From contig DXJV01000004.1 of assembly GCA_019056785.1 (NCBI GenBank), positions 1-20,771 of the forward strand: DNA of 20,771 bases, read 5' to 3'. The DNA is from Candidatus Heimdallarchaeota archaeon (GTDB lineage: Archaea > Asgardarchaeota > Heimdallarchaeia > JABLTI01). Positions 929 through 19,909 of the stretch are shown here, one piece after another. Positions within the stretch are counted from its first letter, which is position 1; each line of letters starts with the position of its first letter. Both the position numbers and the translations under genes were made by a program. A model generated the notes under the pieces. The model saw only the letters and a program-made list of their open reading frames with translations. It searched no databases and was not told where the DNA came from.

Positions 929-1741
929 TTAAACAGCAAACTTCTCGAGTTCAAAGCCCTCTTTCAGTAGTTGAGCTACCCGTTTAACAAAATCGACTGC
1001 CGGTCCCCCATCAACGATATCATGATTTATTGTTACGCTGAAATTCAAGAAGTCTTTAAATTTCACGCCAGTTTTTGTTTCTACTGGTTTTCTTACGATT
1101 GAACCGATTGTGAATTGGGTTTGGTGCATTGTTTTTGGGACTACCCATCCTGGCATTCTTTTTCCGAACATTCCGAGTGCGCTTACCCCGATTATTCCCA
1201 GGTGTTCTTTGTGTTTGAATGGGTTTTTAATAATTGTTGGCCAGATGAATTTTTTCCTGAAAAAGATAGGCAATTTTAGGAGGGATCTTTGTTTTTCTTT
1301 TATCTTTTTCTCTTCGGCTCGTTTTTCTTCCAATTTGGCTTGTACGTCTCGCAATTCTCGATGCAATTTTTCAAAGCTCTTTTTGTCTGCTTTTCTAAAG
1401 ATGTAATGTATTGGTATTCGTCTGTTATTTATCATTCGTTCTATCATGCATTTTATATCCACATCATTGAATATGACACTCTTCCATTTTTTCCAGCGAA
1501 ATGTTCTTATTTCTGGATACTCGCTTGCTGCTTTTGCCACACAGCGCATGAACCATGCCGTAAATGATAGTTGCTCTCCTGTTTTTTTCCGATAATTTTC
1601 GAATATTTGCAAACTTTTTGTTACGTCTGCGTCTGTTATTCCTGTTACGTGGTTAAAAAATTTGCTTGCGCTTATGCTCTCGACTATTATCTGCCTATTT
1701 CTCGGAAAAACGTCTACTTGATAACCGTTTTTTTTCTTCAT
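929..1741 (-). CDS. Stand-alone 2-oxoacid dehydrogenase E2-type acyltransferase catalytic domain protein (no lipoyl domain), paralog 1
   Basis: DADVT, LSFTAWFMRCVAKA, VSALGMFG, and catalytic HxxxDG in NHDIVDGGPA. ATG 1741 (MKKKNGYQV) is preferred over TTG 1789 because it aligns with the paralog's N-terminus. Confidence 0.85.
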   Translation of the reverse strand: MKKKNGYQVDVFPRNRQIIVESISASKFFNHVTGITDADVTKSLQIFENYRKKTGEQLSFTAWFMRCVAKAASEYPEIRTFRWKKWKSVIFNDVDIKCMIERMINNRRIPIHYIFRKADKKSFEKLHRELRDVQAKLEEKRAEEKKIKEKQRSLLKLPIFFRKKFIWPTIIKNPFKHKEHLGIIGVSALGMFGKRMPGWVVPKTMHQTQFTIGSIVRKPVETKTGVKFKDFLNFSVTINHDIVDGGPAVDFVKRVAQLLKEGFELEKFAV

Positions 1742-2004
1742 CTCTTTTCGTTTTCTATCTTTCCATTTTATCTTTAAAAAGCTTGACAAAAAGTCAGAAA
1801 AGTTTTCTTGGTAAGCGTCTTTTTTTATTTCTTCTTCTATCTTTGTCCAAGGTATTTCTCCATTTCAAGACCGACAAATTTTTGCTTTACTAAGAATGGC
1901 CTTTTTAAAACTATAAAATAGATAATTAATCCTTTCGAAAAAATTCTAATAGGTTGCTGTAAAAAGATTATTGCCTTTAATAACGATAACTTAGGTTAAA
2001 AAGA

Positions 2005-2802
2005 ATGAAGGATGTAAAAAGCTATAAAGTCAAAAGTTACCCTGTCTCCCGGCGAATTACTTCTGAATTATTTCATCAAGCACTTAAACACCATGTTGTT
2101 CATGGTTTGTTAGAGATTGATGTTACTACCATTCGAAAAATTATTCGTCAACGAAGATTACAAGGAGAAGAAATTTCTTTCACTGGCTATATTGTTTTTT
2201 GCCTTGCCAAAGCTCTTAAAGAGAATGAAGTTTTTAATGCCATGCGAAAAGGGAATCGCAAGGTGATCATCTTTGAGGATGTTGATGTTGCCCTTCTCAT
2301 TGAAGTTGAACAGAACTGGAAGAAGGTTCCTTTGCTTTTTATTATCCGTGCTGCTGACAAAAAATCCTTTCAAGAGATCAATGAAGAGATTCAACGAGCA
2401 AAAGAAGCAAAGAGGAATGCTGCCACGAAGCAAGACAAGCTCCTTGCCTTTTATTTTCTTCTCCCCAAATGTATTCGAAAATGGCTCATTAATTTCCAGT
2501 ATAAACACAACCCTTTTTTCCGCAAGAAAATGGGTGGCACTGCAGCTGTCTCTTCTGTTGGCATGTTTGCTGCTGGTGGTGGCTGGGGCATCCCCATCAG
2601 TTTGCAGACGACTTTTCTTTTAGTTGGTGGTGTTGAATCTAAGCCGGTAGTTCGAGAGAACAAGATTGTCATCCGTGAGATGGTGAACGTTACTTTCTCT
2701 TTTGACCATGACTTGATCGATGGTGCTATTGCCTCTCGTTTAACGGCTCGAGTCAAAACTCTTATTGAAAGCGCCTTTGGCTTGGAAAAATATCTAGAGT
2801 AA
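2005..2802 (+). CDS. Stand-alone 2-oxoacid dehydrogenase E2-type acyltransferase catalytic domain protein (no lipoyl domain), paralog 2
   Basis: EIDVT, ISFTGYIVFCLAKAL, VSSVGMF, FSFDHDLIDGA (HxxxDG); 265 aa with no lipoyl-lysine domain. Confidence 0.88.
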   Translation: MKDVKSYKVKSYPVSRRITSELFHQALKHHVVHGLLEIDVTTIRKIIRQRRLQGEEISFTGYIVFCLAKALKENEVFNAMRKGNRKVIIFEDVDVALLIEVEQNWKKVPLLFIIRAADKKSFQEINEEIQRAKEAKRNAATKQDKLLAFYFLLPKCIRKWLINFQYKHNPFFRKKMGGTAAVSSVGMFAAGGGWGIPISLQTTFLLVGGVESKPVVRENKIVIREMVNVTFSFDHDLIDGAIASRLTARVKTLIESAFGLEKYLE

Positions 2803-2847
2803 GAAGTTCTGCTCACTCCTTAAACCCTGGCGCCTGAATCTCTGTCT

Positions 2848-17500: not shown

Positions 17501-17625
17501 AACAAACCCTCCTAAATTGCTCGATATCGTCTTTCACATTGAGTATTATTATGTCATTCTGCCTTTATATTCTTGTTTCTGGTATTTTTTTACCGGTTAA
17601 AGAGGGAGCAGTTTTCCCAGTTAAA

Positions 17626-18993
17626 TTATTCTTCAAAGGGGCACCCGGCATTAATCCATGCTTTCATACTGCCAAAAATACCCACCACATTCTTATAGCC
17701 CTTTTTCAGAAGGAAACTGACAGCTGTAAAGGTTTTAAACCCCGAGTCGCAATAAATAGCTATTCGTTTGTCTCTAGGGATCTTTTGTATTTCGAGTGGT
17801 AAATTTCCGAGGAAAATATGATGGGAACCTTTTATCTTACCATTTTCTTTTACGCTATGTGCTATTCGTACATCAAGAATGAACAGGTCCGGATCCTCGA
17901 AACGCTTATTTAATTCATGCACGGACCAAACAGCTGTCTTCTGATACTGTTCTCCTTGCAGACACCAGTTTCGAAAGCCACGCAAATAAACCATGACATT
18001 ATCAAACCCCAGTCTAATGAGATATTTGAGTGCCAAAGTCAAGTCTTGATGGGTGCTTTTTATAATGACAATTGGTTTTGTATACTCGAGCATCCAGAGT
18101 GCGTTGGTTGGCAGGCCATTTTTCCAAATGCTGAGGGAATTTGGAATGTGTCCGCCGGCAAAGCTCTCCGGCTCTCGAATATCTACAATTTGAGCGCTGT
18201 TTTTTTGCGCTTGTTTTACTTCTGCTACTGTCATAGGCTTTGGATTTGGCAATCCGTCTAAAAGAGGAGCACCTTCTAAATTGAGCTTCTCAATGGTAGT
18301 CATGTTAGGTGCAATTTCAAATGTTTCTCTTGCCATACATGAAAGAAATTCTTCTTTAGTCAGTAAGAGATAGGGGGTTGTTTGTTTTTCATAACCAATT
18401 GTTGTATATGGGAAGCTGGAAATACTCCGGCCACAAATAGATCCTGAACCATGCGCTGGAAGAACAAATGTTCCATCATCAAGTTGAAGTAGTTTTTCGA
18501 ACAAACTATTATAAAGCCAGAGAGCGGCTTTTTTCTGTTTCTCTTTATAACGATAAAAGTCGATTCTCCCAACATCACCAGCGAACAAAGTATCTCCAGT
18601 GAAGATCAGATATGGTTATTTTGAATGTTTTTTTGTTTTAACAAGAATAGAAATACTCTCGGGCGTATGCCCTAGTGTCGTAAGTACTTCAAAGTTCAAA
18701 TCATCAAAGGTAAAATGCTCGCCATCTTTAACTGGCTGCCCGTAGTTAAACGGTAAACGCTCACCGTAATAAATAACAGCGCCCGTTTGATGAGCCAATT
18801 GGACTGAACCATTTACAAAATCCTCATTTCGATGTGTATCGAAAATGGCGGCAATTTTAACATTGTGCTTTCTTGCCAACTCGAGATATTCTTCCACATC
18901 TCTTCGAGGGTCAATAACCAATGTTTTTGTTTCGGAAGCGATGAAATACGATTATGCAACAGTCCTCTCGGAAATAATTTTTTCCAAGATCAT
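17626..18993 (-). pseudogene. MBL-fold hydrolase/persulfide dioxygenase-like protein fused to two rhodanese domains, interrupted by two in-frame TAA codons
   Basis: A single frame from ATG 18993 (GAGGA RBS): MILEKIISERTVA*SYFIAS...VIDPRRD...THRNEDF...GHTPES...KHSK*PYLIFTGDTLFAGDVGR...PAHGSGSICG...GHIPNS...YCDSG. Stops at 18954-18952 and 18618-18616; this joins track ORFs 18616..18921 and 17626..18588. Confidence 0.85.
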
Positions 18994-19111
18994 TCTTAAA
19001 ATCCTCTTTTCTTAACGATAGGGGAAGAACATTAAAAGTCAATTGCTTAAAAAAAATGAAAGAAAAAGAAGTCTTTAACAGACTTTTCTTCTGAAAGAAT
19101 TATATTTCCTT

Positions 19112-19909
19112 TTAAGTCTCTTTTTCCTCTGGAGATGTTGGAGCGGTAGCTTCATCTTTCTCTTCTTTTTCTTCTACGCCGGTGGATGTTATTTTTGTTT
19201 CAACATCGAGTTCTTTTTCAAGCACTTCTTTGCTTTCCGTTTGTTGCACTTTATGTTTAACGAGTAACTCTCCGTAATATTTGAATTCCTCAAAGCTTTT
19301 TGTAAAATGACGGATAATTAACACGGCAACATTTTTGCTGTGATAGACGCAATCGTTAAAGTCCCGTTCACTAAAGGCAATAGCCGGTTCTCGCCAATCC
19401 TCCGGCGACAAGTCTGTCATATATTCATCAATTGATTTATTGATCTCATTGATAACCTGCGTTACTTCTTGACCAAAAGGTTTGTCATACATATAAGCTC
19501 GTCTTCGTAGTCTGTCGCCCCAGAGTTCTCCTTTGTGCTTTTGCATTAATTTCAGTTTTTCGTCTTTCTTTGTTTTAGGCAGCTGCTGATCGAGGTAATA
19601 GGCAAGTATGGTTGTCTCGAGCATGAACCGCAACTCGAGTAAAGCCGAATGATAAAAACCCCAACACACGAGGTTTTGGACATTCGCAAACCGTTTGGTG
19701 AACCCTACCATCTCTAAAAAGATGAGTGAATTCTCATATTCGGCTTCTTTCTCTTGTATGCTCTCAAGAAATTTCTTAAAGTCAAGTTCATAATCAGTAA
19801 TAATTCGTTTCCAGGTGTTGTAGAGAAGTTTGTTATAATTCTTTGTTTCCTTCTCTGTTTTTTGAAATTTTTTTACCCATTTTTTTGAATTCAACCCAAA
19901 TGCAAACAT
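19112..19909 (-). CDS. Hypothetical all-alpha protein with HEPN-like N-terminal signature and acidic low-complexity tail
   Basis: GFYHSALLELRFMLETTILAYYL matches the G.Y..A...LR..LE helix of HEPN-superfamily proteins; no R/S-x4-6-H catalytic motif at the expected place; E/K/T-rich C-terminus. Confidence 0.55.
   Translation of the reverse strand: MFAFGLNSKKWVKKFQKTEKETKNYNKLLYNTWKRIITDYELDFKKFLESIQEKEAEYENSLIFLEMVGFTKRFANVQNLVCWGFYHSALLELRFMLETTILAYYLDQQLPKTKKDEKLKLMQKHKGELWGDRLRRRAYMYDKPFGQEVTQVINEINKSIDEYMTDLSPEDWREPAIAFSERDFNDCVYHSKNVAVLIIRHFTKSFEEFKYYGELLVKHKVQQTESKEVLEKELDVETKITSTGVEEKEEKDEATAPTSPEEKET

Follow-up and report, generated by a model that had tools for sequence, protein, structure and literature searches.

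The stretch of DNA considered here, called the window throughout, spans 20,771 nucleotides of a Candidatus Heimdallarchaeota archaeon (positions 1 to 20,771 of contig DXJV01000004.1, GenBank assembly GCA_019056785.1) and corresponds to contig C30 of a metagenome-assembled genome (MAG), G000, which comprises 2.87 Mb in 102 contigs, has a GC content of 38.6% and is 82.5% complete. Its open reading frames (ORFs) include those for HEAT-repeat, WD40 and rhodanese proteins, an AspRS-type protein and a MutY-type glycosylase, and 22 copies of the palindrome CTCGAG are scattered through and between the genes. We report that this word is the most over-represented hexamer of the genome and a mild, lineage-specific archaeal member of the class of highly iterated palindromes (HIPs), and we weigh what may have written it into the DNA.

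CTCGAG in the window and its genes

The first-pass annotation of the window had listed 22 CTCGAG sites where it expected two to three. All 22 positions were verified, and dinucleotide-preserving shuffles yielded 2.43 +/- 1.54 sites with a maximum of 7, none of the 100 shuffles reaching 22; the GC content of the window ranges from 35 to 43% in 2-kb blocks. When placed on the ORF list (hyphens mark codon boundaries), 13 sites read CTC-GAG, four xCT-CGA-G and three xxC-TCG-AGx, and two are intergenic. The annotation's frame calls for the sites at 944, 2747 and 4241 and its intergenic calls for those at 6174 and 12762 all agree with this list. The individual sites, with the words found at the same position in relatives where these were compared, are as follows.

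944..949: CTC-GAG (Leu-Glu), minus-strand ORF 929-1789
2747..2752: xCT-CGA-G, plus-strand ORF 2005-2802
3499..3504: CTC-GAG, minus-strand HEAT-repeat ORF 2848-3522
3817..3822: CTC-GAG, minus-strand WD40 ORF 3571-4458
4241..4246: xxC-TCG-AGx, minus-strand WD40 ORF 3571-4458
6174..6179: divergent intergenic spacer 6098-6391
7930..7935: CTC-GAG, AspRS-type ORF 7684-9018
8512..8517: CTC-GAG, AspRS-type ORF 7684-9018
8819..8824: xCT-CGA-G, AspRS-type ORF 7684-9018
10049..10054: xCT-CGA-G, ORF 9238-10593; at the same position in 0 genus relatives
11059..11064: CTC-GAG, minus-strand ORF 10963-11760; relatives have CTTAAA, CTAAAA, CTAAAG or CTTCAA, and a gap in one
11218..11223: CTC-GAG, minus-strand ORF 10963-11760; relatives have TTAGAA, TTGGAG or TTAGAG
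12762..12767: divergent intergenic spacer 12644-12866
15621..15626: CTC-GAG, ORF 12867-15665 (932 amino acids (aa), TSP3/LVIVD); without counterpart in relatives
16356..16361: xxC-TCG-AGx, minus-strand MutY-type glycosylase ORF 15704-16540; without counterpart in relatives
16621..16626: final two codons (Leu-Glu) of minus-strand ORF 16618-17094
16922..16927: xxC-TCG-AGx, minus-strand ORF 16618-17094; without counterpart in relatives
17320..17325: xCT-CGA-G, ORF 17192-17461; present in 7 of 11 genus genomes, the sole widely shared site of the window
18085..18090: CTC-GAG, rhodanese ORF 17626-18588; relatives have TTAGAT or TTGAAT types
18880..18885: CTC-GAG, ORF 18616-18921; relatives have TTAGAA or CTTGAG
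19616..19621: CTC-GAG, ORF 19112-19909; relatives have TTAGAA or TTGGAA
19634..19639: CTC-GAG, ORF 19112-19909, 18 bp from the site at 19616; relatives have TTAGAA or CTTGAG

The excess is genome-wide and confined to the bare hexamer

Enrichment of CTCGAG extends well beyond the window. The genome carries 1,731 copies, which are present on all large contigs at an even density and amount to a mean of 0.60/kb; at 1.06/kb, the window lies at the top of the genome range. At every Markov order CTCGAG is the most over-represented of the 4,096 hexamers, with observed/expected ratios (O/E) of 4.6 (order 0), 5.1 (order 1), 3.6 (order 2) and 2.4 (order 3), and the excess persists under the maximal-order null (order 4; O/E 1.62, z ~41), where the runner-up reaches 1.29. 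The TCGA core, which the first-pass annotation had considered as a possible source of the signal, is not enriched genome-wide (O/E 1.05-1.27) and does not absorb it, as the order-3 ratio shows. Tabulation of all NTCGAN words agrees, with C...G as the one conspicuous cell (3,462 vs 356-2,814 in the other cells). The lack of excess that had been noticed in the window for two words of the same composition likewise holds for the whole genome: GAGCTC has an O/E of 1.3 (order 0) and 1.0 (order 1), and GTCGAC of 0.47 and 0.86, respectively. TTCGAA and ATCGAT occur at normal frequency, and none of the one-step neighbours of CTCGAG is depleted. The target word of a Type II restriction-modification system is normally avoided, or at most neutral, in its host, whereas CTCGAG is the most enriched hexamer of this genome.

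The distribution of the sites is Poisson-like, with a coefficient of variation of the spacings of 1.01, a variance/mean ratio of 1.1 in 5-kb windows and slightly too few spacings under 30 bp. Neither clustering nor regular spacing beyond chance was detected in the genome, nor were there site-free islands beyond chance, the longest gaps being 13.7 and 11.3 kb. The sole tight cluster (six sites in 440 bp, C8:2111-2549) lies inside a minus-strand ORF (1667-2678) and is not a tandem repeat. Along genes the sites are evenly spread, with a lower first decile. Flanking positions carry at most 0.09 bit each, and the palindrome ends at the hexamer; all 16 top octamers contain CTCGAG, and none exceeds the prediction from the hexamer plus independent flanks. 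Together, the flank information and the octamer counts rule out a longer motif, an extended palindrome and a repeat element such as a miniature inverted-repeat transposable element. At the -1 position A is favoured and G halved in this genome, whereas T is favoured in its relatives, and because the two differ we attribute this preference to codon context.

Codon choice and spacers carry the same signal

The first-pass annotation had argued from the variety of reading frames that more than a codon-pair effect is involved, and this view was borne out. Synonymous codons were permuted inside each long ORF (2,373 in all), a procedure that preserves the protein sequence and the codon usage of every gene, and CTCGAG proved to be in excess in all three frames: CTC-GAG was observed 971 times vs 319 expected (3.0x), xCT-CGA-G 343 times vs 174 (2.0x), and xxC-TCG-AGx 247 times vs 33 (7.5x). 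Nine control palindromes subjected to the same shuffles gave overall ratios of 0.6-1.2. Leu-Glu dipeptides are not inflated (6,407 vs 6,248 expected) and the coding excess therefore reflects codon choice, which draws on all synonymous alternatives, including those two to three changes away (AGT/AGC for serine, TTA-GAA for Leu-Glu). Outside of genes, 58 sites lie in the 1,328 true spacers with a length of 30-300 bp (167.6 kb in total, GC 30%), vs 10.9 expected (5.3x, P ~1e-23); CTCGAG is again the top hexamer, and the sites occur in spacers of every gene-orientation class. The CTCGAG excess is a property of the DNA and not of the proteins.

These data also decide on the most trivial explanation, namely a compositional or coding artefact produced by codon or dicodon usage, by TCGA or CpG context, or by a dispersed repeat. 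Such an artefact could appeal to the dominance of single frames, given that CTC-GAG makes up 62% of the coding sites in this genome and that its relatives mostly use xCT-CGA-G, with A/T bases on third codon positions. However, an artefact of this kind does not survive shuffles that hold protein and codon usage constant, nor does it account for the spacers; CTCGAG also still ranks first among hexamers once all 5-mers are conditioned on, with TCGA itself not enriched, and uninformative flanks and Poisson-like spacing speak against a repeat. We consider the artefact refuted by these tests and effectively excluded.

A family-level trait whose sites turn over

To follow the excess across the lineage, we determined the CTCGAG/GAGCTC ratio in 83 genomes of the class. 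The ratio is 2.3-3.5 in all 12 genomes of one family (f1), which consists of ten genomes of the genus, the genome under study and one sister genus, and 0.3-1.35 in all 71 others. The 12 genomes count as a single evolutionary event and not as 12 separate cases, the excess having arisen once, in the ancestor of the family. In two relatives, G008 and G010 (GC 33%; 170-180 kb each), CTCGAG exceeds synonymous shuffles 2.8-3.1x (z 8-9) in all frames, which shows that relatives share the excess. The dominant coding frame is CTC-GAG at a GC content of 38.6% and xCT-CGA-G in the two relatives, as their lower GC predicts; lineages of different base composition thus spell the same word with different codons.

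Conservation of individual positions is a different matter. The genome under study forms an isolated branch, with ~60% DNA identity to every other member of the genus and saturated third positions, and metagenome contigs provided no closer relatives (best protein identity, 54%). When codons of a syntenic block were aligned across the 11 genomes of the genus, 21 of the 29 columns containing a site were singletons, and opposite the CTC-GAG sites of our genome the relatives mostly have TTAGAA-type codons. CTCGAG positions turn over across the genus. At a shorter time scale, provided by an alignment of G008 with G010 (146.6 kb, 85.4% identity), 30 of 60 G008 sites are conserved in G010. This number compares with 20.8 expected from frame-matched controls of the pattern S-W-S-S-W-S (P 0.01), with 18.0 from pattern controls that contain a central CpG (P 0.001, few controls), and with 25.6 (42%) from all hexamers (P 0.16); hexamers of equal composition or with a CpG would predict ~12-13. 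A first estimate, which set a retention of 54.5% against 22-31% for composition-matched hexamers (31% for hexamers with four GC bases, 22-24% for those containing CpG), was inflated by codon-position effects and discarded; most sites of this genome pair lie in the frame that places A/T bases on third codon positions. Retention is at best modest, as for a weak force acting on many sites. Since the sites turn over while their density stays high, this force is still operating.

One way to understand such a force is weak selection for the density of a functional site, not for its position, with a lineage-specific dimeric DNA-binding protein reading CTCGAG in nucleoid organisation or in the recognition of self-DNA during recombination or uptake; methylation would then be unneeded or secondary. 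The force is felt in spacers as well as in every frame, retention lies modestly above matched controls, and even density with Poisson spacing fits a need for one site somewhere per 1-2 kb better than it fits fixed regulatory sites. There is also a parallel in cyanobacteria, where the sites of HIP1 are conserved, which has been argued to reflect selection (Xu, Lawrence and Durand, 2018, PMC5861425), and where HIP1 has recently been linked to transformation and the type IV secretion system (PMC13756078). Nevertheless, the analysis yielded no candidate for such a reader, hardly any positions are conserved across the genus, and the excess in retention is small. Six base pairs are also short for specific self-recognition, and known DNA uptake sequences are longer and non-palindromic. 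We rate a protein-read site as possible, if unlikely.

Solitary methyltransferases and a possible methylation-linked bias

Our best guess, which we hold tentatively, is a bias linked to methylation, with a candidate solitary methyltransferase acting on CTCGAG. A chromosomally fixed enzyme of this type would recognise the hexamer, and processes coupled to methylation would tilt the balance of gain and loss towards it. Modified cytosines might, for example, be protected from deamination in a genome drifting towards AT; alternatively or in addition, repair or recombination might favour the methylated allele, similar to the methylation-dependent repair ratchet that Elhai proposed for the HIPs of cyanobacteria (PMC4390886). 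There is precedent within the domain, in that CTCGAG is methylated in different archaea as N6-methyladenine, 5-methylcytosine or N4-methylcytosine (PMC11033074).

The first-pass annotation had advised looking for an orphan methyltransferase, and two conserved solitary enzymes indeed exist, neither of which could be tied to CTCGAG. The amino-methyltransferases of the genome comprise three small beta-class enzymes, one permuted enzyme, one TaqI-like protein of 891 aa, one N6_Mtase of 471 aa and two fragments at contig ends. Only two are conserved in the family, methyltransferases (MTases) A and B, and these constitute the writer candidates, the former genus-specific and of N4-cytosine type, the latter class-wide and CcrM-like. 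Each is a solitary gene in a conserved syntenic context, shows stronger conservation than the genes flanking it and has no nuclease next to it.

MTase A: C36 (L060:4598-5389), minus strand; 263 aa, TSPPY motif, closest to solved N4-cytosine enzymes
MTase B: C57 (L062:6336-7049), minus strand; 237 aa, DPPF motif, CcrM-like

MTase A is found at 69-75% identity in 8 of the 10 other genus members (one copy partial) and at no more than 49% elsewhere in the class; in the Heimdall genus its place is fixed, with a bactofilin-like gene on one side and a gene for 175 aa on the other. The enzyme belongs to a highly conserved family and has 552 relatives at 53-67% identity in species-representative genomes, including Brocadiaceae, Thaumarchaeota, Thermoplasmata, Dehalococcoidia and Sulfolobales, among others, and this spread over phyla points to transfer of one enzyme type between domains. 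Around these homologues, outside the Heimdall loci, there is also no palindrome with a consistent skew that could hint at the specificity of the enzyme. A further copy, 69% identical, is present on L116 (DATKZI010000044.1), a sequence of 31% GC with a 5x CTCGAG excess, as in the Heimdall genus, that is titled 'Candidatus Bathyarchaeia archaeon'; the taxonomic label of this MAG may be wrong.

MTase B is 72-76% identical within the family, including the sister genus, and 45-58% identical in the majority of the remaining families, where CTCGAG is not in excess. Five of the class's seven families keep it as a solitary gene whose neighbour is steroid-5-alpha-reductase-like (orthologues L083-L097). 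The enzymes of the CTCGAG-rich family are devoid of the N-terminal (40-90 aa) and C-terminal (30-40 aa) extensions of their f2 and f3 orthologues. Two of the remaining enzymes were set aside on account of their distribution: the 891-aa Eco57I/TaqI_C protein (C2), which shares 34-38% identity within the genus, is absent from the sister genus and looks like a fast-evolving defence gene, and the 471-aa N6_Mtase (C91), which was found in none of five relatives.

Several observations weigh against a methylation-linked origin. A search of the sister genus, which has the excess, did not yield MTase A (the MAG is 75% complete). In the DNA around its closest homologues outside the Heimdall loci the aggregate CTCGAG O/E is 0.9, and the five genomes with the most enriched MTase A loci have whole-genome CTCGAG/GAGCTC ratios of 0.85-1.1; presence of the MTase A family hence does not predict a CTCGAG excess outside the Heimdall clade, and we rejected it as an established writer. 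MTase B was rejected in this role on account of its equal conservation across the class, families without excess included. Neither a C5 methyltransferase (PF00145) nor Vsr (PF03852) was found in the 82.5% complete genome. The deamination products CTTGAG/CTCAAG have O/E values of 1.28 (order 0), 0.92 (order 1) and 1.11 (maximal order), and the CTT-GAG codon pair stands at 0.98. Finally, by a rough estimate protection from deamination alone would yield at most a ~two-fold excess.

The annotation had further suggested an XhoI/PaeR7I-type specificity. No XhoI/PaeR7I-type system was found in the genome. The XhoI nuclease (PF04555) in particular was not detected, a weak negative in a MAG of this completeness and with 0 of 14 control genomes scoring either.

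Repair as a possible methylation-independent source

Methyltransferase-linked repair can make its own target word too frequent throughout a genome, as in E. coli, where Dcm/Vsr very-short-patch repair raises the frequency of CCWGG. A related but methylation-independent explanation, which appears rather unlikely to us, regards CTCGAG as a neutral by-product of a context-dependent repair or mutation bias that dates from the family ancestor, for instance through a very-short-patch-like mismatch enzyme that resolves near-CTCGAG mismatches towards CTCGAG; the sites themselves would be functionless. Their random scatter, their turnover and the undistorted proteins all agree with this explanation, for which Dcm/Vsr provides the precedent, and the genome encodes MutS, NucS/EndoMS and, in the window, a glycosylase of the MutY/Mig type. 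It differs from the Dcm/Vsr case, however, in that neither Vsr nor a C5 methyltransferase was found in the 82.5% complete genome and in that the T-containing donor words are not depleted. In addition, synonymous sources two to three changes away fit any long-term directional force and not one mismatch in particular.

The glycosylase encoded at 15704-16540 (minus strand) is a MutY/Mig-family HhH-GPD protein of 278 aa with 56-60% identity across the genus, in which a weak C-terminal winged-helix match replaces the usual MutY C-terminal domain. We considered this protein, on account of its HhH-GPD and winged helix-turn-helix parts, as a sequence-directed mismatch glycosylase and rejected it, as it is an ordinary member of the MutY/Mig family; its conservation extends beyond the question of the motif, which counts against the repair explanation as well.

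Other features of the window

In two divergent ORFs, 929-1789 (minus) and 2005-2802 (plus), the match to 2-oxoacid dehydrogenase acyltransferases is limited to the catalytic domain (PF00198); neither ORF has a lipoyl or E3-binding domain. The contig end at 20325-20770 is 73-88% identical to pieces of three other contigs of the same genome (C63, C98 and C68) and has multiple nearby copies in relatives (G005:C4, G007:C127 and G010:C15). As a dispersed repeat, this piece is probably what caused the assembly to break at the end of the window. Inside the window, Tandem Repeats Finder detected no tandem arrays.

Discussion

Throughout the genome, the bare hexamer CTCGAG is favoured by a weak directional force wherever synonymous codons or non-coding DNA leave room for it. 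The closest known parallel is HIP1 (GCGATCGC), which together with alternate HIPs of cyanobacteria tracks cognate solitary methyltransferases (Elhai, 2015, PMC4390886). Similar to HIP1, CTCGAG is a short palindrome and the most over-represented word of its genome, occurs in all reading frames and between genes, marks a whole lineage and is absent from its sisters, and resembles a restriction site without matching nuclease. In contrast to HIP1, CTCGAG is a hexamer and not an octamer, resides in an archaeal host, and shows a ~5x excess compared with 15-300x. HIP1 sites are clearly conserved in position; those of CTCGAG are so only weakly, to a modest degree at 85% identity and hardly at all across the genus. 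No cognate methyltransferase was identified among the candidates of the genome. HIP1 also displays a 10-90 kb periodicity; the spacing of CTCGAG, known here from 102 contigs, is Poisson-like at short range.

CTCGAG itself has been described in Nocardia, in which a conserved orphan methyltransferase targets CTCGAG and clusters of the motif adjoin dnaA (Blow et al., 2016, PMC4752239). Both cases concern a restriction-type word and a solitary, lineage-conserved methyltransferase, not defence, with the difference that our enzymes are candidates only. The Nocardia motif forms a local cluster at the replication origin, unlike the genome-wide excess reported here, and our sole tight cluster (on C8) is located inside a gene of a MAG whose origins are unmapped. 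Our literature searches returned no paper on a CTCGAG excess in archaea, and the Asgard methylomes that they uncovered cover Atabeyarchaeia and Freyarchaeia only.

The first-pass annotation had offered a methylation-linked mark, a methyl-directed repair bias and the site of a chromosome-organising protein as explanations; all three are still live, and the analysis does not separate them. Our own ranking places the methylation-linked bias first, followed by the protein-read site and then by a methylation-independent repair or mutation bias, with something else making up the remainder. A more far-reaching version, in which CTCGAG would be the archaeal equivalent of HIP1, that is, a methylated self-mark favouring the organism's own DNA in recombination, repair or uptake, strikes us as improbable. 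If it were true, the HIP phenomenon of cyanobacteria would have an independent counterpart in Archaea, and a general methylation-coupled mechanism would write short palindromes into genomes.

At ~5x the effect is modest, and CTCGAG presently amounts to an oddity that is well documented, not to a mechanism. The HIPs of cyanobacteria have puzzled researchers for three decades, and an independent, milder case in Asgard archaea would show that the phenomenon is not peculiar to these bacteria, while adding a further system for models of methylation, repair and self-recognition. In practical terms, CTCGAG offers a clean family-level genomic signature, which can aid binning and the detection of foreign DNA in these MAGs, and its excess predicts a specific and checkable methylome result for close relatives of eukaryotes.

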